The notes under the pieces were generated by a model. That model did not search any database, had not been told where the DNA came from, and saw only the letters and a program-made list of their open reading frames with translations. A stretch of DNA of 64,000 nt from Chiloscyllium plagiosum (taxonomy: Eukaryota). Position 1 is the stretch's first letter. Each line of letters begins with the position of its first letter. Position numbers and translations under genes: made by a program. The DNA is taken from positions 420,367-484,366 of the forward strand of contig NC_057757.1 in NCBI RefSeq assembly GCF_004010195.1. Reading direction: 5' to 3'. Shown here one piece after another: positions 2,464 to 61,440 of this stretch.

Positions 2464-4319
2464 GTAGCCAGGAAAGATCTAAAGAAAGAGCTGAGAAGAG
2501 AAAGGAGGGGGCGTGAGAAGTTGCTGCCGGATAGGGTCAGAGAAAACCCTGGAGCTTTCTACAGGTATATAAGGGATAAAAGAATGACTAGAGTAAGATT
2601 AGGGCCAATCAAGGACAGGAGTGGGAAGTTGTGTGTGGAGTCAGAGGAGATGGAGAAGCGCTAAATGAATATTTTTTGTCAGTATTTACACTGGAAAAAG
2701 ACAATGTTGTTGAGGAGAATACTGAGAAACAGGCTACGAGACTACATGGGAATGAGGAACACAAGGAGGAGGTGTTAGAAATTCTGGAAAGTTTGTGAAA
2801 ATAGATAAATCCCCTGGGCTGGATGGGACTTATCCTAGGATTCTCTGGGAAGCCAGAGAGGAGATTACCGAGCCTTTGGGTTTGATCTTTATGTTGTCAT
2901 TGTCTACAGGAACAGTACCAGAAGACTGGAGGATAGCAAATGTTGTTCCCTTTTTCAAGAAGGGCAGCAGATACAACCCTGGTAATTATAGACCAGTGAG
3001 CCTTACTTTGGTTGTGGGTAAAGTGTTGGAAAAGGTTATAAGAGATAGGATTTATAATCATCTTGAAAGGAATAAGTTGTTTAGGGATAGTCAGCATGGT
3101 TTTGTGAAGGGCCTCACAAACCTTAGAGTTGAGAAGGTGACCAAACAGGTGGATGAGGGTACATCAGTTGTGGTGTATATGGATTTCAGTAAGGTGTTTG
3201 GTAAGGTTCCCCACGGTAGGCTATTGTACAAAATACAAAGACATGGGATTGATTTAGCAGTTCAGATCAGATATTGGCCAGCTGAAACAAGACAGAGGGT
3301 GGTGGTTGATGAGAAATATTCATCCTAGAGTTCAGATACTAGTGGTGTACCGCAAGGATCTGTTTTGAGTCCACTGCTGTTCATCATTTTTATAAATGAC
3401 CCGGATGAAGGTATAGCAAGGTGGGTTAGTAAATTTGCGGATGACACTAAGGTCGGTACAGTTGTGGATTGAGCCGAAGAATGTTATAGGCTACAGAGGG
3501 ACATAAGTACGCTGCAGAGCTGGGCTGAGAGATGGCAAATGGAGATTAATGCAGAAAAGGGTGAGATAATTCACTTTGGAAGGAATAACAGGAATGCAGA
3601 GTACTGGGCGAATGGTAAGATTCTTGGTAGTGTGGATAAGCAGAGAAATCTTGGTGTCCATATACAAAGATCCCTCAAAGTTGCTACCCAAGTTGATGGG
3701 GTTGTTAAAAAGCATACACTGTGTTAGCTTTTATTAGTAGAGGGATTGAGTTTTGGAACCATAAGGTCATGCTGCAGCTGTACAAAACTCTGATGCAGCC
3801 AGACTTGGAATATTGCGTGCAGTTCTGGTCACCGCATTATTGGAAGGATGGGAAAGCTTTGGAAAGGGTTCAGAGGAGACTTACTAGCATGTTGCCTGGT
3901 ATGGAGGGGAAGTCTTACAACTTGAGGGACTTGAGGCTGTTTTTGTTAGAGAGAAGAAGGGTGAGATGTAACTTAATTGAGACATACAAGATAATCAGAG
4001 GGTTAGATTGGGCGGACAGTGAGAGCCTTTTTCCTCAGATAGTATGGCTAGGACAAAGGGGCATAGCTTCAAATTGAGGGGTGGTAGATATAAGACAGAT
4101 GTCAGAGATAGTTTCTTTACTCCGTGAGCAGTAGGGGCATGAAACACACTGCCTGCAAAGTAGTAGACTCACCAACTTTACAGGCATTTAAATGCTCATT
4201 GGATAGGCATATGGACGAGAATGGAATAGTGTAGGATAGATGGACTTCGGATCGGTTTCACAGGATGGTGCAACGTCGAGGGCTGAAGGGCCTGTACTGC
4301 GCTGTAATGTTCTATGTCT
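2464..4319 (+). mobile_element. 5'-truncated CR1 LINE (decayed RT) in ACADVL intron, inserted into an older L2-like fragment
   Basis: ORF pieces KSPGLDGTYPRIL...GNYRPVSLT, KFADDTK, LEYCVQFWSPHY; AATTAAG duplicated at 2457-2463 and 4320-4326. Confidence 0.9.
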
Positions 4320-4893
4320 AATTAAGATCGGGAAGCTCGAGACCAGTGAGATGAGCGCACAGGATCCCAGAGAATTATTAGTCTGGAGAAAGTAACAGAG
4401 AACAGGGTCAAGCAAAGCCATGGAAGATTTTGGAAACAATGTCAAGAATGGCGAAGAAACAGCACAGTAGAACAGGACTTGGTGCAAGTCATGACATGGG
4501 CAGCTAACATTTGGATGATGTAAGTGTACAGAGAGTCAACCATAAAACATAGGAGCAGAAGACCTTTCAGCCCATTGAGTTTGCTCTGACATTCAATGAG
4601 ATCATGGTTGATCTGAAACTCTCAGCTCAGCTTTTCTGTTTTTTTTATCTCATTACCCTCAATCCCCTTACTGATCAGAAATCTAAAGACTCAGCGATGG
4701 AGATCCACCTGTTTCACATTTTGTCGCATCCCTTTTTGGAAATGTTGTACATGTCTTCAATATACTTAATGACTCACCCTCAACATCCCTCTGCGGCAAA
4801 GAATTCCATTGATTCACTACGCTCTGACAAAGAAATTCCACCTCATCTCTGTTTTACATGTGTGACTCCTTAATCCAAAATTATATATTTTGG

Positions 4894-6006
4894 GATGTAG
4901 GTTTGCTCGCTGAGCTATTGGTTTGATATCCAGACGTTTCATTACCTGGCTAGGTAACATCATCAGTGGCGACCTCCAAGTGAAGCGAAGCTGTTGTCTC
5001 CTGCTTTCTATTTATATCTTTCTCCTGGATGGGGTTCCTGGGGTTTGCGGTGATGTCATTTCTGTTCGTTTTCTGAGGGGTTGATAGATGGCATCTAGAT
5101 CTATGTGTTTGTTTATGGCGTTGTGGGTGGAGTGCCAGGCCTCTAGGAATTCTCTGGCATGTCTTTGCTTAGCCTGTCCCAGGATAGATGTGTTATCCCA
5201 GTCGAAATGGTGTTTTTTTTCAATGAGCCACCACACACTGCAGCATAGGCGAACTTCGGAAAACAGAGGGGAACCACCTATAGAACGTATTCAAGAAGAA
5301 CGGATACTCAAAAAATACAGTCCGCAGATTCCTCAAGAACAAACCACGACAAGCAGACCAAACATAGCCAGAAACCCTAACCACCTTTCCATACATCAAA
5401 GAAGTTTCAGAAATGACAGCCAGACTACTAAGACCCCTCAGAATCCTAGTAGCACACAAACCCACCAACACTCTCAAACAAAAACTAACAAACTTAAAAG
5501 ACCCAGTACAACCCATGAACAAAACCAACGTCATCTTCAAAGTTCCATGCAAGGACTGCCACAAACACTACGTAGGACAAACAGGAAGAAAGTTAGCCAC
5601 CAGGATACACGAACACCAGCTAGCCACAAAAAGACACGACCCTCTCTCCCTCGTAGCCCTACACACGGATGAAAAAAGACCACCATTTCGACTGGGACAA
5701 CACATCTATCCTGGGACAGGCTAAGCAAAGACATGCCAGAGAATTCCTAGAGGCCTGGCACTCCACCCACAATGCCATAAACACATAGATCTAGATGCCA
5801 TCTATCAACCCCTCAGAAAACGAACAGAAATGACATCACCGCGAACCCCATCCAGGAGAAAGATATAAATAGATAGCAGGAGACAACAGCTTCGCTTCAC
5901 TTGGAGGTCGCCACTGATGATGTTACCTAGCCAGGTCTGGATATCAAACCTACAGCTCAGCGAGCAAACCTACACCCTAAACCTCAACCTGAGCTACAAA
6001 TCTTGC
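4894..6006 (+). mobile_element. Penelope-like element: inverted pLTR + 3' GIY-YIG endonuclease region + pLTR
   Basis: NVIFKVPCKDCHKHYVGQTGRKLATRIHEH (GIY-YIG); about 4897-5220 is the reverse complement of about 5670-5973; 14-bp TSD ATTATATATTTTGG at 4880-4893 and 6007-6020. Confidence 0.92.
4930..4969 (-). ncRNA. Minimal type-I hammerhead ribozyme motif in Penelope pLTR
   Basis: Minus strand reads cca-CUGAUGA-u-GUUACCU(agcc)AGGUAAU-GAAA-CG-UC-ugg. Confidence 0.65.
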
Positions 6007-8639
6007 ATTATATATTTTGGTCCTAGATTCTTCCAATACATCTGGTTCATTAATGTCCTTTAGGGAAGGAAAATGCTATCCTTCCCTGATCTAGCCTACA
6101 TGTGGCTCCAGACTCTCAGCAATGTGGTGAACTAAGGTCACCTCTCATTCTTCTAAACTCTAATGAGTACAGGCCAAACCTACTCAACCTCGCCTCATAA
6201 AATATTCCCTCCATACGCAGGATCAGCCTAATGAGCCTTCTCTGGATACGTCCAGTACAGTTATGTAATTCCTTAGATAAGGGAATTAAACTGGTTTCAG
6301 TATTTCAGTTGAGGTCTGACTCATGCTTTGTATAGTTATAGGGAGACCTCTCTTAGTTTTATATTCAATTCCTTTTAAACTAAAGGCTAGTGTTCTATTT
6401 GGCGTTCCTACTATTTTCTGAACTTGGATATTAGATTAGATTTTTTTTTTTAAATGTGCATGGGCTCCCAAATCCCTCTATGCTGTAGATTTCTGCAGTC
6501 TTTCTCCATTTCTATAATATTGAGCTCCTGTATTCTTCCTGCCAAAGTGCATAATATCACATTTTCCCACATTACATGCCATGTGCCAAGTTTTTGTCGA
6601 CCAACTTAACCTGTCTATATCCCTCTGCAGACACTTGGTGTCATTCTCACCACTTGCTTCCTACCTATTTTTGTGACTTTTGCAAACTTGTCAACAGTTC
6701 ATTAATATACCTCATCCAGGTAATTAATATAAATCATAAATAATAGAATATGAAAGAGCAAAAAAGGGTCTGTTGCAATAGGTTTTGCCTAGAGGTAATA
6801 AAGGCAAGAATATAGAGTGCAGATGACAGGAATTAAGACAACATGAATTGTTCAATAGTATTTTCTGTATCAGAGTAGGCCAGCAGTGAATAATTATTCC
6901 AGGTGAAACAGTAAACCAAAGTCCTATTTCTTACCTCCAGTTGATGGAAAGGAATGGCAGGACAGCTCATCCCAGTGGCCTCTATCATTCAACCAACATT
7001 GTTTTACTTTTCGGAGACCTTGTTTTACATACATAGACTGCCTTTGTTTTTATTCACTTGTGGGACGTGGGTGTGACTAGTTGGGCCAGCATTTGTTGCC
7101 CATCCCTAGGTGTCACTGAGAAGATGGTAGTGAACAGCTGCCTTGAAACCCTGTGTAGTCCATGTGCTATAGGTTTCCTGATGTTACAACGGTTCTTGTA
7201 TTGCAAAACTATTTCATTGTTCGGAAAGTGCTTTGGGATGTTTTGAGGTGGTGAAAGGGGCTGTAGAAATGGAAGTCTTTTCTGTCTTCAGCTTCTAAAC
7301 TCACTGTCTTATGTTCTGCACCAGCTGTCAGATAAAACCTGATTTGCCATGTGAAGACACCTCATTGGAAATGGACCCTTTATCTCCTTTCCAACCACCA
7401 TCTCTGAGCCAGATTGTCCGCAGCACTTCCTCCCACACTTAACCAGTTTACCCTGTGGTTGACAACTTGCTGAGTGGAAATTTTTTTTTAAGATAATACA
7501 GCTTTGAGCTACTTTTAAAAACCATTCTTTTTATTTCAAAGTGCTTTTTCTGCTTGAACTTTCCGTCAGTGGAAACAACATGTGAACCCACGATAATGTC
7601 CAAGACTGAGGAAAAATGTGCAGAATGGTTCCAGGATGAAGAACTTTAGTTCATGTGGAGAGACTGAAAAGCTGGATTGTTCTCCTCCATAGAGCAGAGA
7701 AGGTCAATGAAAGGTTTAATTGAGTTATTTGGATTACTGAGAGATTTTGATAGCAGTAAGGGGAAGCTATTTCCACAGTCAGTGAATGTTGAGTGGATTG
7801 GACCGAGAAGATCAAGTGAAATGGGGGCACAGCTACATACATCAGAAGAGTAGGGCAAAGATTAGCTTAATTAAGAGAATTGCCCACAGAACTTTCTGGT
7901 TAATGGGAAGGTTCAGTTAGACAGGCTACCTGGTAAATGGAGCTGTTAGTTACTACATTAGATAAACTGAGGTTCTACATTCGAACATACACATTAGGAG
8001 TAGGAGAGGGCCATTTGGCCCTTTGAGACTGTTCAATAAGAGCAAGTATAATCTGGTTGTAGCCTCATCTCTTCATTCCTGTCTAACCCTGATAACCTTT
8101 AACTCTTTTGTTAATCAAGATTCTATCTATCCTTTTCTTAACAATAACTAGAAAATAAAACAAATAGCTCTTCTATAAGTAAATTGTTAAAGTCCACAAT
8201 AGGATTAAGAGCGCTTAGTCTGTGGAGAAAATGAGTTCATTCTTATTCCCAGTTTATATTCTAAAATATCCGTGGACATTGTTATATTAACACTGAGCAG
8301 AAGCCTGAAAAGTAGTGATGTGAATGCTGTAGAACCATATCCTGTTTGTCACTAGTTAGAAAATGTTTTTGCTTTTTGTCAGTGTTCAGTTGCGAGAAAC
8401 ATTGTTTGTGAGAATAGAATGCGCGCAAGTCTCAATCCGTGTGCCTGGCTTGAGATCAGCATATATCTGGGATGTCCTCAGAGGCCCTAACTGGAAAACC
8501 CTGCATACTGTGCGTAAGTAAGTTAGGGAGACCTTGTGTATGCAGATCTGATCAGTCACCCTCCCAAAATGGGGACAGTGAGGGGTGAATATCTGGAAAC
8601 AGATTAGTGTCAACCTCTTTTCAGCATTGAGCCACCAGA

Positions 8640-9185
8640 ATACTTATCACTAAACTGAGTTCACTTCTGATCTGGTCACTGGCCTGCAGGAAGGAGGTAC
8701 TGGCTCTGGGATTGATGCAATGCAGATTCACTAGAATGACAATAGGGTTTCAGTTAGGTGGGCAGGTTTATACAGATTTGAGTGTAGAAGATCAGGGAGT
8801 GATCTCATCAAGATGCTCAGGATTATTAAAGGGTTTCAAAGGTTCAGTGGAGTATTCCTTCCAGCGAGGGTGGCTGGGTTTGCAAATGGTGAGAGTCTGG
8901 TACAAGGGGGCAAAACCTTAAAATTCAAACTAGGCCCATTCAGGGTTTATATCAAGAAACATTTCCTGTCACAAAGGTGAGTGGAAATCTAGACTTTTCT
9001 CCCCTTAAGAAAAACTGTTTAGACTGAGACAGAATTGAAAATGTCAAGGCTAAGATTGGTATATTTTTGTTGGGTAAAGGGGTTAAAGGTTGCAGAACTG
9101 AGGCAGTTAGATCAAGTTGTTCCTCAGATCTAATTGTATAGTGTATCAGTTTGGAGGGGCTGAATGGCTTCCTTCTGTCTCTGTG
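8640..9185 (+). mobile_element. Decayed CR1 3' fragment
   Basis: QCRFTRM motif and CR1-like 3' UTR ending gagggGCTGAATGGC. Confidence 0.6.
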
Positions 9186-17442: not shown

Positions 17443-18186
17443 AAAGTTTGTGAGAAGATTTGTAGCTCGGGTGCTCATTGTTTTGGTTCTGTTCGCCGAG
17501 CTGGGAATTTGTGTTGCAGACGTTTCGTCCCCTGTCTAGGTGACATCCTCAGTGCTTGGGAGCCTCCCGTGAAGCGCTTCTGTGATGTTTCCTCCGGCAT
17601 TTGTAGTGGTTTGTCCCTCCGCTTCCGGTTGTCAGTTCCAGCTGTCCGTTGCAGTGGTCGGTATATTGGGTCCAGGTCGATGTGCTTATTGATTGAATCT
17701 GTGGATGAGTGCCATGCCTCCAGGAATTCCCTGGCTGTTCTCTGTTTGACTTGTCCTATAATAGTAGTGTTGTCCCAGTCAAATTCATGTTNNNNNNNNN
17801 NNNNNNNNNNNNNNNNNTGGTGAGTTGTTGTCTGAGAGTGGCTGTTGGTTTGTGTGCTGTTATGAGTCCTCGTGGTCACAGTAGTCTGGCTGTCAGTTCG
17901 GAAAGGCTCTTGATGTATGGTAGTGTGGCTAGTCCTTTGGGTTGCGGCATGTCTTTCCCTTAGGCATCTGTTGATGAAATTGCGCGGGTATCCGTTTTTG
18001 GCGAATACATTGTATAGGTGCTCTTCCTCTTTTTGCAGTTCTGGTCTACTGCAGGGTGTTGTGGCCCTTTTGAATAGTGTCTTGATGCAACTTCTTTTGT
18101 GTGTGTTGGGGTGGTTGCTTTCTTAGTTCAGGACTTGGTCTGTGTGTGTGGCTTTCCTGTATACACTTGTGGTGAATTCTCCGTTC
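17443..18186 (-). mobile_element. Penelope-like element fragment with pLTR
   Basis: HEFDWDNTTIIGQVKQRTAREFLEAWHS, the GIY-YIG C-terminus; pLTR homologous to 20280-20430. Confidence 0.85.
17516..17555 (-). ncRNA. Minimal hammerhead ribozyme motif in Penelope pLTR
   Basis: gca-CUGAGGA-u-GUCACCU(agac)AGGGGAC-GAAA-CG-UC-ugc on minus strand. Confidence 0.6.
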
Positions 18187-22420: not shown

Positions 22421-23444
22421 ATTGAACCATTTGCCCAAACATCTATCTATGTATACCACCTTAATTTCTTCTTTTGCTTAACTTGCATCATGACTTTAAA
22501 TGTTAAAATGTAGATCAAAGAGATCATATCTAGAGTGCAAATGAGGCACTGAAAGATATGGCATTGATTATGATCTGAGATTTTGAAACCACATTCAAAT
22601 CTCGTTCTGGCCTTAGTTTATTTCGGATATAGCTGACTCCTGATTATCTTGTATATGGCTAAAACTGTATAGTTCAGGGGAAGAGCTCAGGAAATAATTG
22701 GACTGGGGAACACATTATTGTTACATTTGCATCATAAGTTCCTATGTTAGCATGTATAATGGGATTTATTCTACTTAAACATATCATGTTGTAATTCCTT
22801 CCTTTGTCTATGGTAATGGCATAGCTTCCAAAATAAATATGGTTCCATCTCTGTAACATCTCCTCTTTCCAATCATACCTCAGCCGATGTGCTGCTAAAA
22901 CTCTCCAGACTCAAACATTCTAATCTTCTCCTGATTAATTCCCATATTCTATAGTCCAAACATTTACTCCCAAAACACTTTGACTCTGTATTCTACTTCT
23001 CACCAAGTCTTAACTCTTGGTGCTGGTTGAACTACATTGACTCCTGCAGTGATAATGCCTCAATTTTTAAAATTCTTATCCTTGAGTTCAAATTCCTAAA
23101 TGGCCCGGCCCTATCCCTCCCTATCTTTGAACTCATGACCTGCCAACTCACAGCTGAGAATGCACTGTGGAACATGTTAAACTGGGGTCCTGTTTGGATT
23201 ATAGGAGTAGACAGAGTAGATTTACCAGGATTTTGCCTGAGCTGGACAGGGGGAATAAACTTAAGGTAAGGGGCGGGCGGGGGGGTTGGGGGCGGTGCGA
23301 ATGTTTAGAGGAGATGTGAAGGAAAACATTTTCACTGAGGGAATCTGAAACTCACTGCCTGTAAGGATAGTAGAGGCAGAAACCCTTATAACATTGAAGA
23401 AGTATTTAGATGTACTCTTATAATGCCAAGGCAAACAACACTAT

Positions 23445-23575
23445 CATTCCTGAAGAAGGGCCTGTGCCCGAAACGTCGAATCTCCTGTTCCCTGGATGCT
23501 GCCTGACCTGCTGTGCTGTTCCAGCAATAAAGTTTCAACTTTGATCTCCAGCATCTGCAGACCTCACTTTCTCCT
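23445..23575 (+). mobile_element. 131-bp non-autonomous Penelope-derived mini-element carrying a hammerhead motif; other copies at 37798-37884, 38978-39105, 46181-46360, 59810-59927
   Basis: Perfect 13-bp TSD CAAACAACACTAT at 23432-23444 and 23576-23588; interrupts a CR1 3' fragment; closely similar copies elsewhere in the window. Confidence 0.85.
23446..23481 (+). ncRNA. Minimal type-I hammerhead ribozyme motif
   Basis: ATTC-CTGAAGA-a-GGGC(ctgt)GCCC-GAAA-CG-TC-GAAT: 4-bp stem I, conserved core, 4-bp stem II, GUC cleavage triplet. Confidence 0.7.
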
Positions 23576-25436
23576 CAAACAACACTATGGGCCAAGTGCT
23601 GGAAAATGGGATTAGAATAGTTGTTTTTGACCTGTATAGACGTGAAGGGCCGAAGGGCCTTTCTCTGTGCTGTCGGTCTGTATGCCTCCATAAATATCCC
23701 AAGGACACTACTCAAAGACAAGTGAGTTGTCTTACTGTGTTAACCAGTTATTTATCTCAATGTTGCTTTGGGCTTTTGAATGGTATACCATTGTTTGTAG
23801 CAACAGTGAGTGAACTTCCAAACAGTTCAACACATGAAAAGTGTTTTGGGCCATTTCCAAAAGGAGTATTGTTAGTCCTTACAAACCACAATGGGACAGC
23901 AAAAGGGAGGCCTGTGCACTTCATCTAACCAAATGTTAAGATTAGACTGCATCTACAAAGGGGTAAAAGGATTAATGAAAGTAAGAACAAAGTAATTACA
24001 TTTATGAGTGGCACACTTTGTGAATGCTGCCAATATATACTTGATAAAATATTGAACTTGATAAAAAATATTGAACATAGTTTCTCTCACTATCTCTCAC
24101 AATTGCGATCTTCCCAGTTGCATTATAAGTTCCTATCTTAGCACATATATTAGTTAGTCACTGTTTGACCACTGATCATGGCTAGGTCTCTTTCACTTCT
24201 CATTTGTGTATTTTTTAGTCTCGTGTGGTTGGCCAGATGCGGAAGCAGCAGGAAAGAGCAAAATGATTCAATGGGCATTTGGTGTAAAGAGTTAATATCT
24301 CAACATGTAATATCTTACATTTCTATCAAAAACAGAAATAGCTGTAGAAACTCAGCAGGTCTGGCAGCAAGTGTGAAGAGAAAACAGAGTTAACGTTTCA
24401 AGTCCAGTGACCCTTCTTCAGAACTGGACTTGAAACATTTATTCTACAGATGATGCCAGACCTGCTGAGTTTCTCCCGCAATTTCCGTTCTTTTTTAAAA
24501 TTGTCAGCATCTGCAGTTCTTTGCTTTATCTCACATTTATAGTGGTGCCTTTTACCCAGTAAAATATCCCAGAATGCTTTCTGAGGGCAAGATCAAACAA
24601 TAAAGAAACTGACACCAAGCCATGAAGGAGTTATTAGAACAGGCTGGTCAAAGAGGAGGTTCTAGATGGAAAGGTTTGGGGACGGAATTCCAGAGCTTAA
24701 GACCCAGAGAACTGAAGGAATGGCTGCCGATGGTGGAACAATGAAAATGGGCAATGACCAAGGAGTCAGACAGGATAGATTCAGATTTATTACAGAGTTG
24801 TAAGGACTGGAAGAGCCTACAGAGATAGCAAAGGGCGAGGACACGGAGGGATTTGAACATGAGACTGTGAAATTTAAAATCAAGGCAATGAGTAGCTAAT
24901 GTAGGTCAGTAAGAACAGGATATTGGATGAACTAGGTGAGAGGGAGTTGCCCTCAACCCAATGGGTATTTTTTAAATGTAACATGAACATCCGCTCCGAC
25001 TGGAATCTGAACCTGTTTCTCATTTCCTCGAATCAGCCCTGCCTCTCTCTTTTGGCTTTTTAAACATGAGAAATTTTAAAAGTAAAGATTTCACTGATAA
25101 AACAGAAAAAGAAATGCATGTTCAGCACATCTTACATCCTGCTTGACAAATATTCAAAAACCTTTTTCAATCTTTGGTACTGTCAGTTTTGTTTTACACT
25201 TTTGGGTAGTAAGGCAAAACATCACTACCCAGATCACTTCCTCCCAATTCAATAATTATTTTCCTGAATATTGTGACTCCTTATGTAGTATGGGCAGCCT
25301 CCCAACTTCCACCCTCTGTAAGCTTTAATAGATCACACACCCTGTGGTCTGTATTCTAAGTGGCACAAAGCTCGGTTCATCCACCACAGCTGGTCATTTG
25401 CAGCCATACCTTCAGTGCTCTTGTCCCATGGGATAC

Positions 25437-37750: not shown

Positions 37751-39337
37751 TATTAACTGGTTATGTGAGGTCTGGGAGCAAGTGCTAGGAGTGGAGATTT
37801 TATTGCTGGAACAGCACAGCAGGTCAGGCAGCATCCAGGGAACAGGAGATTCGACGTTTCGGGCACAGGCCCTTCTTCAGGAAAGGCTCTCAGGTCTTCT
37901 TTGTGATTCAACTCCACTTTCCCGCTCACTACCTATATTGAGTCATAATCATAGTCATAGAGATGTACATCACAGAAACAGACCCCTTCTGTCCAATTGT
38001 CCATGACGACCAGATTTCTAAATTAATCTAGTCCATTTGCCAGCATTTGGCCCATATCCCTCCTTTTTGTAAATATATTTATTTGCAAATTTTTTTTAAC
38101 TTTACAAACATAAAATTATTGAAAAATACAATCAATAACAATATCAGTATAATAAAAACAAAAAAAACACAAATTACAATGCAACTACTGTCTACCAACT
38201 ACTAACCTACCCTATAATACAAAACAAACCCGAACACTGTGCAAAGCAACACAAAAAAACGCAAATAAAAAGCCACAAAATACAGAACAGCTATGCTTGG
38301 CACAAAGTTCCCAAACAAAGGAACATTGTGTATATACCCACATTAACTCAGGGGACTCCCTCCAGGGCCCAGGGCTTGACAAATCTAACCAGCCTGGTTC
38401 GACAAAAGCCCTAGTTAGGATAACTGACAAATCTATATCCAAGTGACACCAGTAGGGCTGCCATGTCTTATAAAAATGGTCTGTTCTGTGGTGCACCATG
38501 TTTGTAAAAATGTCCAAGGGAATGTACTCCACAATTAATTTCTGCCATCCCAGTAAGCCTGGCAGGTTCTCAGACACCCAATTCATCAGAATATTCTTCC
38601 GTGCACAGTATGCAAGAATATTAAATAGTTTCTTCCCATGCCCGTCTAAAGATGGTAAATTCAGTAGACCTAAGAGGAGAGATATCGGGTCTACTTTTAC
38701 TTCAGTCCTCAATACCCTCCCTATCTCTCCTGCCACAGCGCTCCAATAAACACGGAGCCTGTGGCATGTCTAGAAGTAATGGGTAAGAATACCTACACTT
38801 ATTTTACATTTGGGGCACACTGATGATGCCCTTTTTTTAAACTTCGCCAGACGGCCTGGTGTCAGATGAGCCCTGTGCAGAACTTTTAACTGCGTAGCGC
38901 ATGTCCTATTACAGACTGAGATCTTTCGAGTATTCTCCCATATGTTCTCCCATGTTTCAGAAGAGATCTCCACTCCTAGGAGAAAGTGAGGTCTGCAGAT
39001 GCTGGAGATCAAAGTTGAAACTTTATTGCTGGAACAGCACAGCAGGTCAGGCAGCATCCAGGGAACAGGAGATTCGACGTTTCGGGCACAGGCCGAAGAA
39101 GGGCCGAAGCTGTTCTGTATTTTGTGGCTTTTTATTTGCGTTTTTTTGTGTTGCTTTGCACAGTGTTCGGGTTTGTTTTGTATTATAGGGTAGGTTAGTA
39201 GTTGGTAGACAGTAGTTGCATTGTAATTTGTGTTTTTTTTGTTTTTATTATACTGATATTGTTATTGATTGTATTTTTCAATAATTTTATGTTTGTAAAG
39301 TTAAAAAAAATTTGCAAATAAATATATTTACAAAAAG
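37751..39337 (+). mobile_element. 5'-truncated L1-clade LINE 3' end (CCHC zinc knuckle + 3' UTR), secondarily rearranged
   Basis: KVLHRAHLTP...CPKCK...LTHYF*TC; AATAAA near the end; 14-bp TSD GAGGGATATGGGCC at 37737-37750 and 39338-39351; most of the ORF now lies on the minus strand. Confidence 0.85.
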
Positions 39338-45862: not shown

Positions 45863-46669
45863 GTGAAACTCCTCTCTGATTCCTATTCTGAGAATACTTG
45901 TAGGGAGATTGAAATGGGTTGGCATTAGGTTGTATTTTCCACATTGGAATGACTTTACTAACACAATAGATGGAAGGATGAGGTTATAGAGTTTACAGAA
46001 TAATCCTGTTTTATTAACAGAGGCAATGAATACTAAGAGAAGAAAATTACATTAAAACTTCAACCAACATTAACTCAGTCCCAAGAACTTAAACATGGAA
46101 ACATTGTCAATGTATGACTTTGAAGGAGGCATTTCAGCCTATCATGACCATGTCGGCAAAGCTGGAGCCTTGTATACAATGGGGAGAAAGTGAGGTCTGC
46201 AGATGCTGGAGATCAGAGCTGAAAATGTGTTGCTGGAAAAGCGCAGCAGGTCAGGCAGCATCCAGGGAACAGGAGAATCGACGTTTCGGGCATTCCTGAA
46301 GATTCTCCTGTTCCCTGGATGCTGCCTGACCTGCTGCGCTTTTCCAGCAACACATTTTCTACTGTGAAGAGAATGCAATTCTGTATCTTCTGCATCCACC
46401 CACGAGCCCCCCCAAAAAATAGATTTCCATTACTTAATGTTGGCAGTTGCCTTGGCTTCAAGCTCTTGTTTTCCATCTCCGTCCAATTGTCTGTACTAGG
46501 ACACTCCTAAAAGATAACCCCTTTGATAAAGCTAATGATCAGTCGTGCTAATATTTCATTTGATCAATGGCAAACATTGTCTGATAATAGCTGCTGTTGA
46601 GCACCTTGGGACATTTCATTATGTGAAAGGCTCTTTATAAATCCATAATGGAAAATGAATACACAGACC

Positions 46670-52727: not shown

Positions 52728-55700
52728 TGGTTGGTTAGTTGAATAAGATGATAGAGAAGTACTAACAATTGTTTAACTCATAAATTTGTATAAATTAATT
52801 AAATAAGTAGAGATGGCGAGAGATAGCTGAATTATGTGGGAGCTGGCTGATCCCATTGGGAACGGCAGTGACCACATCTGCAGCAAATGTTGGTTGCTGG
52901 AAGAACTCCAGATCAGAATTGATGATCCAGAATCTGAGCTTCAAACACTGCAGCACATCCGGGAGGGGGAGAGTTACCTGGACGCTTTGTTTCAGGAGGC
53001 AGTCACACCCGGCAGATTAAGTAATTCAAATTCAGTCAATCACGAACAACAGGGTTTGACTGTAAGTGAGGCAGGTAGGGGGATTCTGAGGTCAGGAGTG
53101 GAGGAGCCTCAGCCCTCGACCTTGTCCAGCAGGTATGAGATTCTTGCTCCCTGTATGGATGAGGAAAAGGGCTGTGGACAGGATGAGCCAGCTGACCAAG
53201 GCACCATGGTGCAGAAGGCCATTCAAGAGGGGGGAGCAAAAAGACAAGTAGTTGTTATAGGGGATTCTATAATTAGGGGGACAGATAGTATCCTTTGTGA
53301 GCCAGATCGGGAGTCCTGCATGGTGTGTTGCCTGCCTGCTGCCAGGGTGCAGGACATCTCTGAACGGCTTGAAAGGATATTGTAGCAGGAAGGGGAGGAT
53401 GCAGGTGTTGTGGTCCACGTTGGCACAACAACATAGGCAAGGCTAGGAAGGAGGACCTGTTTGAGGATTATCAAGCACGAGGAAGGAAATCGAAGAACAG
53501 GTCCTCAAAGGTCATAATCTCTGGATTACTGCCCGAGCCATGTGCTAATTGGCATAGGGATAAGAAAATTAGGGAAGTAAACATTTGGCTAAGAGATTGG
53601 TGTGGGAAAGGGGGCTTCCATTTTATGGGACATTGGCATCAGTTTTGGAACCAGGGTGATCTGTACTGATGGGATGGTCTCCACCTGAACCAATCTGCAT
53701 CCAGTGTTCTGGCGAAAAGGATAAATAGGGTGGTCACTAGGACTTTAAACTTACGAGTCGGGGCGGGGGGAGGGAAAGGGAAAGTAACAGGGAGCATGGA
53801 ATCAAATAGAAAGATATAATTCTGGTCAAACTTGAAGGGGTTCAGAAAAGATTTACAAGGATGTTGCCAGGGTTGGACAATTTGAGCTATGGGGAAAGGC
53901 TGAACAGGCTAGGGCTGTTTTCCCTGGAGTGTCGGAGCCTGAGGGGTGACTTTATTGAGGCTTACAAAATTATAAGGGGCATGGATAGGTTAAATAGACA
54001 AGGTCTTTTCCCTGGGATGGGGGAGTCCAGAACTAGAGGGCATAGGTTTAGGGTGAGAGGGGAAAGATATAAAAGGGACCTAAGGGGCAACTTTTTCACG
54101 CAGAGGGTGGTACGTTTATGGAATGAGCTGCCAGAGGAAGTGGTGGAGGCTGGTACAATTGCAACATTTACAAGGTATTTGGGTATATGAATAGGAAGGG
54201 TTTGGAGGGATATGGGCAGGGTGCTGGCAGGTGGGACTAGATTGGGTAGGGATATCTTGTCGGCATGGACGGGTTGGACTGAAGGGTCTGTTTCCATGTT
54301 ATACATGACTCTATAAGCAGCAGGTTAGCATCTGTGCAGGGTTTAAGTTCAAGACAGACTAGGAAATGAAGCAAAAAGGAAGGATAACTTAGGTAGAGGT
54401 GATGGAAATCATGAGGATAAGAAAACTAGAATTAAGCTGATTTCCCTGAATGCTCGAAGCATTCGAAACAAAGTAGATGAATTAACAGCACAAATCATCG
54501 TAAATGATTATGATGAGGTAGGCATCACAGAAACGTGCTTGCAGGGGGTTCAGGACTGGCATTTAAACATCCAACTGATTTACAAGTGATCAAAAAGACA
54601 GGGAGGCAGGCAGAGAGGAGGTTGCCCCGTTAGTTAGGAATGAAATTAAATCTATGGCATTAAATGATATAGGGTCAGATGATGTGGAGTCTGTTTGGGT
54701 GGAGTTGAGGAACCACAAAGGCAAAAAATGAGAGTTACGTACAGACCTCCCAGCAGTGGTCAGGACCAGAGGCGCAAGATGTACCAGGAAATAGATAGGG
54801 CATGTCAGAAAGGTAAGGTCACGATGATCATGGGGGACTTCAATATGCAAATGGACTGGGTGAATTATGTTGCCGGTGGATCCAAAGAAAGGGAATTCAT
54901 GGAATGCTTACAGGATGCATTTTTGGAACAGCTTTTGATGGAGCCCACAAGGGAGCAGGCTATCCTGGACTTAGTACTTTGTAACGAGCCAGACTTTATA
55001 AAAGATCTTAAAGTCAGGGAACACTTAGGAGGCATCGATTATGATATGTTGGAATTTAGTCTGCAGTTCGAGAGCGAGAAGGCAAAATCAGATGTAATGG
55101 TGTTACAGTTAATAAAGATAACTACAAGGGCTTGAGAGAGGAATTGACGAAAATTGAGTGGAAGCAGAGCCTAGTGCTGAAGACAGTAGAGCAACAATGG
55201 CAGGAGTTTCTGGGTGTAATTGAGGACACAGTACAGAGCTACATCCCAAAGAAAAGAAAGATTATCCAGGGGGGGATTAGACAACCATGGCTGATGAAGG
55301 AACTCAGGAAACGTATCACAGAAAAAGAGAGAGCCTATAAAGTGGTCAAGAGCACTGGGAAATCAGAAGATTGGGAAGACTACAAAAACAAACAAAGGAT
55401 TACAAAGAGAGAAATAAGGAGGGAGAGGATCAAATATGAAGGTAAGCTAGCCAGTAATATTAGTAATGATAGTAAAAGTTTATTTCAATACATAAAAAAC
55501 AAACAAGAGGTAAAAGTAGAGATTGAGCCACTCCAATTTAATGCAGGAAGGCTAGTGATGGGAGAAAAGGAAATAGCTGAAGAACTTAATAAATACTTTG
55601 TATCAGTCTTCACAGTGGAAGACGTGAGTAATATCCCAACAATTAAGGAGAATCAAGGGGCAGAGTCGAGTATGGTGGCCATTACAAAGGAAAAAGAACT

Positions 55701-58964: not shown

Positions 58965-61440
58965 GAACATTACAGAGCAAGAACAGGTCCTTTGGCCCTC
59001 TAAGCCTGCACTGATCCATATCCTCAATCTAAATCTACTGTCTATTTTCTAAGGATCTGTATCCCTTTGCTCCCTGCCCATTCATGTATCTGTCTAGATA
59101 CATCTTAAATGACGCTATCATTCCCACCCCTACATCTCCGCTGTCAATGCATTCCGGGCACCCACCACCCTCTGTGTAAAAGAACTTTCCACATATACCT
59201 CTCCTACACTTTTCCCCTCTCACTTTAAACTCGTGACACCTAGTAATTGATTCTCCCACTCTGGGAAAAAGTTTTTTGCTATTCACCCTGTCTACACCTC
59301 TCATGGTTTTATAGGCCTCAATCAGGTTCCCCCTTCTTTCCAAGGAAAATAATCCTAATCTACTCAACCTCTCCTCATATTTAGTATCCTCCATACCAGG
59401 CAACATCCCGGTGAACCTCTTCTGCACCCTCTCCAAAGCAGCCACATCCTTTTGGTAATATGGTGACCAGAACTGTACGCAGTATACTAAATGTGGCCGA
59501 ACCAAAGTCTTATACAATTGTAACATGACCTGCCAACTCTTGTACTCAATACCCCGTCCGATGAAGGAAAGCATGTCGTGTACCTTCTTGACCACTCTAC
59601 TGACCTGCGTTGCCGCCTTCAGGGAACAATGAACTTGAACACCCAGATCTCTCTGTACATCAATTTCCCCCAGGACATTTCCATTTACCATATAGTTCGC
59701 TCTGGAATTGCATCTTCCAAAATGCATCATCTCGCATTTGTCCGGATTGAATTGCATCTGCCATTCTCTGCCCAACTCTCCAATCTAGGCTCTGCTGTAT
59801 TATCTGGCAGAGAAAATGAGGTCTGCCGATGCTGGAGTCAGAGATGGAAATGTGTTGCTGGAGAAGCGCAGCAGGTCAGGCAGCATCTAGGGAACAGGAG
59901 AATCGACGTTTCGGGCATTAGCCCTTCGCAGTCCCCTTCACTACCTGCTACTCCACCAATCGTAGTGTCATCTGCAAGCTTGCTAATGAGGCAGCCTACA
60001 TACCTTCCTCCAAATCATTTATGTATGTCACAAACAACAGTGGTCCCAGCATGGATCCCTGTGGAACACCACTGGTCACAAGTCTCCATTTTGAGAAGCT
60101 CCTTTCCACTACTACTCTCTGTCTCCTGTTGCCCAACCAGTTCTCTATCCATCTAGCTAGAACACCCTGGACCCCATGCGACTTCACCTTTTTCATAAGC
60201 CTACCATGTGGAACCTTGTCAAACGCCTTACTAAAGTCCACGTATATGACATCTACATCCCTTTCTTCATCAATCAACTTTGTCACGTCTTCAAAGAATT
60301 CTATTAGGTTTGTAAAACATGACCTTCCCTGCACAAAACCATTGTCTTCCAAATTCACTTTCAAATATATATCCCATTCTCTTTGAAATCTTGTACAGAA
60401 TCTGCTTCCACCACTCTCCCAAGCAGCACATCCAATCCTAACAACTTTCTAAGGAAACAAGTGTCTCCTCATTTCACTCCAAGCTCTCTTGCCAACAATT
60501 TTAAATTAGACTCCTGGTTACTTACATACCAACTTGTGGGAGCAGAATGTTCTTCTTTACCCTGTCAAAATGGTTCATAATTTTGAACATTTCATTTAAT
60601 AAAGTCATCCCTTAAGCTTCCTGCTCTATGGAGAGTAGCCCCGATTTCTCTATTCTTTTCTTGCATCTGAAATCCCTCATTCCTGGTATCATTCTTGTAA
60701 ACCTTTTTGCACTTCCTCCAGGGCTTTAACATCTTTCTTTAAATAGAGTACCCAGAACTGAATACAATACCCCAAATGTGGTCTGACCAATGATTTGTAG
60801 AGGGGGAACATCACTTCCTTGCTTTTACACTCTATGCCTCAGTTTATAAACCCAAGGATCCTATAAGCCTTAACAATGGTTTCAACTTGCCTGGCCACCT
60901 TAAGGATTATGCACTTGAACCCAGAGGTCCCTCTGCTCCTGTATTCCCCTCAAAGTTGCACCATTGAGTGTGTATTTCTCTCTGACTTTCTTCTACCAAA
61001 CTGCATTGCCTCATGTTTTTCTGCATTGAAATTCATCTGCCAGGTGTCTGCTCATTTAGCCAATTTGTCAATATCTCTCTGAAGTCGCTCAGTGTCACCC
61101 TCGCAATTCACAATTTCCTCCAAGCTTAGTATCATCTGCAAATTTAGAGACTTTTCCCTCAATACTTATCACCAAATCATTTATATAAATCAGAAACGTA
61201 AGGATCCCAACACCAATCCATGGAGAATAGCACTTACAACATATCTCCAGTCTGAGAAATACCCAACTATACCTATCCTGTTTCCCATCTTTTAACTAAC
61301 TTCTAATCCATGCTGCCAAGGACCCATCAATCCCAAACATTTGCATTTTGCAAACCAACCTGCCATTTAGCACAGTATCAAATGCTTTCTGAAAATCCAA
61401 ATATACAACATCCACTGCGTGTGTCACCTTATTAAAGAAC
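58965..61440 (-). mobile_element. Two tandem CR1 fragments (58965-60340 younger, interrupted by the mini-element at 59810-59927; 60360-61440 older)
   Basis: 246-aa minus ORF WQMQFNPDKC...[29 protein letters not shown]...[10 protein letters not shown]. Confidence 0.88.

Follow-up and report, generated by a model that had tools for sequence, protein, structure and literature searches.

A 131-bp insert and its target site

The window analyzed here, that is, the whole stretch of 64,000 nt, comes from Chiloscyllium plagiosum (GCF_004010195.1, NC_057757.1, positions 420,367-484,366 of the forward strand). At 23445-23575 it carries a plus-strand insert of 131 bp, or 132 bp if the T at 23444, common to the insert and the TSD, is counted. 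The 13-mers on either side, at 23432-23444 and 23576-23588 (both plus strand), are identical and form the left and right TSD. Among 7 paralogous matches of the host repeat, with one locus counted twice, 6 show an overlap of the two flanks by 12-13 nt and the other one by 25 nt. This overlap indicates that both the TSD and the empty site are real, and the 131-bp unit with a perfect 13-bp TSD, described in an earlier note on this DNA, is thereby confirmed. The repeat split by the insert is older and extends approximately from 23300 to 23700, with paralogs of 72-87% identity that join across the site; we take it to be a CR1-like LINE 3' region. The location inside another retroelement was examined at the focal copy alone.

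Several features succeed one another along the plus strand of the insert. An initiator-like YYANWYY match at 23444-23450, which coincides with the modal 5' end of the copies, is a predicted transcription start. It overlaps a minimal type-I hammerhead motif at 23446-23481, followed by an AATAAA hexamer at 23526-23531 that is missing from older subfamilies. The last 35 nt (23541-23575) form a tail between two 3' end sites at units 96 and 131, in a numbering of the end module in which unit 51 is window position 23495. Judging from the copy ends and from PMC11167929, these two sites are likely two reverse-transcription start sites. The focal copy is a monomer and has no TATA-like box upstream.

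The hammerhead motif and its conservation

Stem I is formed by 23446-49 and 23478-81, the CUGAAGA core lies at 23450-56 and the extra A at 23457. Stem II (23458-61/23466-69), the GAAA at 23470-73, a CG at 23474-75 and a U-C complete the motif, and cleavage is predicted after 23477. Stem III of the focal motif exists solely as an intermolecular ACGU palindrome. The stems, core and extra A had thus been drawn correctly within the first 37 nt, and with the core, stems I and II and the palindromic 15.2-16.2 pair all present, the assignment to the minimal PLE (Penelope-like element) type holds as well. We infer that such a hammerhead would cleave only as a dimer or with the help of a protein. Dimeric PLE hammerheads are reportedly the subject of a 2017 paper.

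Detection of the motif differed between methods. A structural descriptor recovered 59 hammerhead motifs in 498 kb, against 0 in 5 reversed/shuffled controls, the 498 kb being DNA picked around copies and hence enriched in the motif. Rfam, on the other hand, gave no match at gathering thresholds across the window and no hammerhead at E ≤ 10 within 23300-23700. The MFE fold of the focal motif recovers stems I and II, with a stability similar to that of shuffled sequences (z 0.10); folding z-scores are uninformative for this motif.

Comparison across families, which were collected via their downstream sequence, shows a core that is constant except at N7; loop II varies too. Stem I pairs differ among families (C-G, T-A or A-T), and stem III is CG or GC, with the palindrome ACGU or AGCU. 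Both stems I and II, together with the stem III palindrome, show compensatory changes as read off the family majorities. MAFFT misregistered the stems of 8 hammerheads.

Across older lineages, the core carries 9 mismatches in 413 positions (2.2%) and the flanks 76 in 989 (7.7%, P 4e-5). Among young copies the relation is reversed, with 13/719 (1.8%) in the core and 6/1702 (0.35%) in the flanks, so that the expectation of a core better conserved than its flanks fails there. A core protected across older lineages and unprotected among young copies indicates selection on the masters, with the stubs as passengers; on this sequence comparison, the hammerhead has probably been selected in master elements. 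The family is young, as the earlier note had suggested. Of the 90 young arms with a length of 90 nt or more, 52 match the focal copy exactly, the sampling having favored identical sequences. No variant is present in more than 4 of 108 young copies, and no recurrent private variant was found.

Linkage to a protein-coding element

The insert is almost certainly a 5'-truncated end module (pLTR and tail) of a protein-coding PLE and not a stand-alone ribozyme-processed mini-element. It is 100% identical to the ends of L005 and L098, copies that extend into 3'UTR, endonuclease (EN) and RT, L098 having the RT core upstream of the unit. It also heads copies that enter the ORF, at 96% identity in L053 and 100% in L081. 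The same module adjoins the 3'UTR and RT/GIY-YIG ORF upstream and the 5' end of the ORF downstream, and thus stands both before and after the ORF in a pLTR arrangement with partial tandems. PLE RT/GIY-YIG as the inserting enzyme, proposed earlier, is supported. The idea of a separate, non-autonomous, ribozyme-processed retrozyme-like element gives way, as the unit equals the ORF-linked ends and copy 5' ends avoid the cut. A contrary case raised in the same note, that of a simple terminal repeat of an autonomous element, is in substance what the ORF-linked copies present.

The linked protein is best seen in L100:744-2132, a 463-aa ORF with Pfam matches to RVT_1 (E 1.3e-7) and GIY-YIG (E 1.2e-4) that continues into an 89% relative of the unit. 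It combines RT, a CX4CXXC linker and a GIY-YIG domain with CCHH. By its C-terminal EN, CX2-5CXXC linker and CCHH, the parent element is Neptune-type at the level of sequence motifs, following the criteria in the accessible part of PMC8557442. The best named homologs of the protein come from sharks and rays, and no named Neptune reference is among the matches listed for it. The first in-frame ATG of the ORF lies 37 nt past the end of the tail. Another ATG lies upstream at unit 51 (window 23495; L029, L053) and is retained in families A and B; the short frame beginning there overlaps the ATG of the main ORF.

The most complete picture of the body has to be assembled from several copies. L073, a TSD-flanked insert of 4.1 kb, combines the N-terminus, an inverted RT-EN piece, EN, 3'UTR and, at 95% identity, the unit. 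As N runs interrupt the long copies, none was recovered at full length and free of gaps, and the element architecture rests on overlapping pieces. In L073 (oriented 2240-2396), the ORF N-terminus contains a Pro-rich repeat of 11-residue units in tandem, where several assemblies break. The copies L035 and L036 lie beside or inside other sequence that presumably represents endogenous retrovirus genes. L080 (G000:C9:58888500-58895400, minus) was considered as a full-length copy and rejected, as it contains unrelated DNA: a 12-bp direct repeat surrounds ~4.1 kb, of which ~3.2 kb are older, unrelated repeats and the rest PLE ORF N-terminus and end module. It is a possible case of host-sequence capture, as described for rotifer PLEs.

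Copies were counted via exact patterns over 3.56 Gb of genome. The hammerhead 38-mer has 11,821 exact matches, the 36-mer 3' of the hammerhead 14,628 and the tail 9,857, and near-identical arms of the end module number more than 10,000. Read-through upstream of the module gave 5,021 matches, to sequence common to a sibling subfamily too, and read-through downstream, from tail into body, 153. The N-terminal pattern matched 41 times and the RT-EN pattern 12 times. Among the first 30 loci of the hammerhead 38-mer, 7 extend upstream into a common pyrimidine-rich 3'UTR, and 2 of these reach the end of the GIY-YIG domain.

Ends of the copies

Ends were surveyed at all 100 exact 36-mer matches in C1:1-22.2 Mb. 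The anchor lies downstream of the hammerhead, so 3' ends at the cut site are invisible in this survey; the 100 arms are not fully independent, since some belong to the same insertion, one compound insertion is present in duplicate (L117/L133) and the focal reference is counted too. About three quarters of the arms consist of the end module alone. Their 3' ends fall at unit 96-98 (30/100) or 129-133 (50/100), two sites 35 nt apart, and elsewhere in the remaining 20. Fold-back (inverted) insertions account for 55 arms, and in all 55 a tailed arm is paired with a shorter one, 4 partners being cut back further; the TSDs of these insertions are mostly 12-17 nt as called. The fold-back pairs and the two 3' sites match the published inverted-copy-plus-tail structure of PLEs and the internal RT starts of the Poseidon element PAc (PMC11167929). 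The AATAAA was tried as the cause of the short 3' end and rejected, given the older subfamilies that lack it and copies without poly(A). One compound fold-back insertion, together with ~120 nt of common extra flank, is found both in L008/L009 and in L020, at places 3.5 Mb apart.

The 5' ends cluster at the 5' edge of stem I. More than half of the arms (54/100) begin at unit 0-8, with a mode at 2-3, while 24 begin further upstream and 22 further downstream. The 5' end rate is 10.4% per nt in the hotspot and 0.65% elsewhere, with P = 6e-36, a value overstated since the 100 arms are not fully independent. At the predicted cleavage site, only 1 of 100 arms begins at unit 34-35, and 5 at 30-35. Solo arms show the hotspot in 21 of 45 cases. 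ORF-bearing copies that reach the hammerhead start at unit 1-8 in 5 of 6 cases, which fits run-off, stalling or trimming alike. Among older sibling copies, 32 of 54 5' ends lie within -6..+3 of CUGA; family C ends are broad, with 12 of 38 in that interval.

These ends bear on whether the stubs are solo pLTRs that remained after the pLTR pair of a full-length element had recombined, a process to which rotifer solo pLTRs without TSDs are ascribed in the available text of PMC3846280. Primary insertion is indicated instead by 5' ends that vary, by the existence of two 3' sites, and by fold-back pairs and TSDs, the latter of at least 7 nt in 23 of 33 short solo arms by a crude search. Full-length copies are moreover very rare, with 12-41 internal matches against more than 10,000 ends, and we consider recombination extremely improbable.

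The same survey speaks against an independent, non-autonomous retrozyme-like element whose solo copies would serve as transcription templates, with processing by the hammerhead and mobilization in trans. The very high copy number would suit such an element, and internal priming would permit copying of any module-bearing RNA. Yet the copies contain the whole uncleaved hammerhead, and the single 5' end at unit 34-35 does not describe an RNA unit bounded by cleavage sites. Instead of the fixed ends and private master lineage of an independent element, we find spread copy starts, no recurrent private variant, a unit identical to the ORF-linked ends and a core unprotected among young copies. The focal copy itself is one hammerhead unit, where a retrozyme would have at least two consecutive ones, and lacks the upstream TATA-like box.

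Short hammerhead tandems of 194-320 bp do exist at other loci. A 224-bp tandem with one idiosyncratic junction and varied 5' ends (L031, L183, L195-L224) recurs 40 times on many contigs, which implies the spread of short tandem templates. No other piece is retrozyme-like, and the 224-bp tandem is at the same time the natural dimer substrate; probably it is part of the master's pLTR array, and at 3 of 30 loci with its junction, RT-EN sequence is joined upstream. A derivation of non-LTR retrozymes from PLE pLTRs is argued in the accessible part of bioRxiv 10.64898/2026.07.22.740005. Overall, we hold an independent element of this kind to be very unlikely. A 320-bp tandem unit also recurs (L029, L038, L086, L092).

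A promoter-like match at stem I

The modal 5' end, the A at 23446, is the A of the YYANWYY match and at the same time the first base of stem I. The labels initiator and TATA, as used for matches near stem I, follow consensus forms that we assume to apply. In families A, A2 and B, the initiator match has its A at -4, and TATA-like boxes lie 29-32 nt upstream. The box of family A is the non-canonical TTTTAT at 32 nt. Stem I of family B differs, with compensating changes; the initiator is retained, and the box, TATAAA or a variant of it, lies 29-31 nt upstream. A TATAAA is also present in families C and D, which have no strict initiator near stem I. Together, the 5' hotspot and the initiator/TATA spacing suggest an mRNA start at stem I and a run-off after 96 or 131 nt. 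This spacing, the pairing of all 55 fold-back arms and the contrast in conservation between masters and copies were added here to the earlier observations.

The insertion can be best explained by end-module truncation of a PLE, the RT starting inside an uncleaved mRNA and running off the RNA 5' end, an explanation that we consider likely as a whole. The GIY-YIG endonuclease would nick both target strands ~13 nt apart, and either nick could serve for priming at one or the other internal site. Transcription by Pol II would begin at the initiator, on the 5' strand of stem I and ~30 nt below a TATA-like box located in the 3'UTR ahead of the module. A strong-stop-like run-off cDNA of 96 or 131 nt would then result from priming in the 5' module copy. 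The resulting stubs, with no TATA-like box and a single hammerhead, would likely be dead on arrival. For the run-off step itself, which we propose from the position of the ends relative to the promoter matches, the chances appear slightly better than even. No extra cap-derived G was evident on the copies by eye. Since no AG precedes stem I, we rejected an intron with its end there, of the kind found in Drosophila virilis Penelope.

The hotspot might also arise if the same end module were derived from the 3' pLTR of long RNA and copying stopped at stem I through RT stalling, endonuclease trimming at ATT or microhomology joining. The PAc endonuclease prefers 5'-ATT-3' (PMC11167929), and the modal copy end is ATT. 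Fold-back junctions carry short microhomologies within the hotspot stretch, and the 24 arms that pass the stem I edge imply that 3'-pLTR templates are used. However, an RT that stops at stem I has already crossed the whole hammerhead, and a structural stall would be expected further 3'. In family B, for whose 5'-end test 1 copy was retrieved, the sequence is AGTT rather than ATT, and yet the consensus drops at the same edge. TATA-like and initiator matches at promoter spacing would also be left unaccounted for by stalling or trimming, and we regard this origin as unlikely.

Returning to run-off from the RNA 5' end, we tentatively offer a joint reading, to which we give somewhat less than an even chance. 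Transcription of the Neptune-type PLE would start on the first base of the hammerhead, stem I doubling as Pol II initiator, and the RT would make strong-stop-like run-off cDNA from the 5' pLTR. The thousands of shark stubs would then be fossils that map the start, and jumps from run-off cDNA would build the tandem pLTRs. Cleavage of dimers would then serve as an off-switch by taking away the first 32 nt with the cap. PLE pLTR regeneration and the role of the hammerhead are open questions in the literature considered here. Should the stubs be run-off products, the template 5' end could be read directly from the genome, PLE priming could be tested cheaply, and the ribozyme would be placed where decapping of the mRNA is possible. 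In annotation, the stubs should be masked as PLE ends and not entered as a new SINE or retrozyme family.

RNA reads came from one poly(A) single-cell run, with 656 and 115 reads on both strands, 94% of them entering unrelated flanks. No start or end pile-up was seen in these raw reads, the run being unsuited to circles; another run gave 0 reads. At L053:1277 (unit 93; window 23526-23531), 29 RNA reads exit the unit with a poly(A)-rich consensus (agreement 0.62). The AATAAA of the young subfamily may end host transcripts.

Further copies and hammerheads in the window

The four similar copies listed in the earlier note all exist, with some corrections. A short minus-strand arm of the focal subfamily at 37799-37883 is the only one of them with the whole hammerhead core, and a tailed minus-strand arm without the CUGA core lies at 38978-39094. 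The two share an inverted 13-bp duplication (37786-37798/38966-38978) and appear to be two arms of one insertion. The remaining copies belong to older siblings: a fold-back pair at 46180-46367 (46180-46292 minus, 92%, and 46301-46367 plus) and a minus-strand copy at 59810-59927 (86%) truncated inside the core. Across 37786-39094, the arms are on the same strand and 1.2 kb apart, as if a fold-back had been split and the intervening DNA flipped; a host inversion between them could not be demonstrated.

Minimal hammerheads of at least 4 other PLE families, with covarying stems, are found at 4966(-), 17552(-), 20358(+), 24421(-), 45843(-) and 57757(+). Those at 17552 and 20358 are identical, inverted and 2.8 kb apart around N gaps, and are possibly one element. 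Motif matches at 55291 and 58673 were discarded, as they look like chance.

Relation to known systems

Minimal hammerheads in metazoan PLE pLTRs were described by Cervera and de la Pena in 2014 (PMC4209133), and the present motif agrees with the accessible description: it has no helix III, a palindromic 15.2-16.2 pair, an extra base before stem II and a G10.1-C11.1 pair. In the same text, most genome-wide motifs occur singly and are attributed to truncated PLEs, pairs on opposite strands are mentioned too, and the motifs show no monomer cleavage and weak dimer cleavage. One of 9 Xenopus dimers cleaved according to the available part of bioRxiv 10.64898/2026.07.22.740005. Our exact-match counts exceed the 4,000-9,000 motifs given for coelacanth and Xenopus in PMC4209133, of which the text parts and one supplement file name no shark and leave 5' ends unmapped. 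Within a limited coverage of the literature, we found no published account of the 5' hotspot, shark PLE hammerhead stubs or PLE strong-stop DNA.

As in the EN+ PLEs covered by the accessible parts of PMC8557442 and PMC3846280, we observe 5' truncation, partial tandems, inverted 5'-truncated copies and a tail of 30-40 bp, and the C-terminal GIY-YIG, CX2-5CXXC linker and CCHH are those of the Neptune clade (PMC8557442). In contrast to these accounts, as far as they are available, about three quarters of the arms here are end-module-only, with a sharp 5' hotspot at stem I. A pLTR promoter with an Inr has a precedent in D. virilis Penelope, as given in part of PMC2377424. The closest mechanistic parallel is Poseidon from Anolis (PAc; Frangieh et al. 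2024, PMC11167929), in which the tail is bounded by two internal RT starts, cutting and extension involve both strands, the template is uncleaved RNA and no ends occur at the cut site. The PAc ORF starts in stem II and priming takes place inside the ORF, whereas here the first in-frame ATG lies beyond the tail, and the element is Neptune-type by motif.

Like non-LTR retrozymes, as portrayed in the available portions of PMC7229834 and bioRxiv 10.64898/2026.07.22.740005, the focal unit is short, non-coding and PLE-related, with a type-I hammerhead. PMC7229834 (2020) describes, in its accessible part, retrozymes with canonical hammerheads and circular RNA. The bioRxiv text reports, where available, retrozymes in one chondrichthyan and counts dispersed 'monomers', and its supplements may list the focal family for that species. 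Non-LTR retrozymes, as there defined, are tandems of at least 2 hammerhead units, whereas the focal copy has one unit, of the minimal type, between its TSDs.
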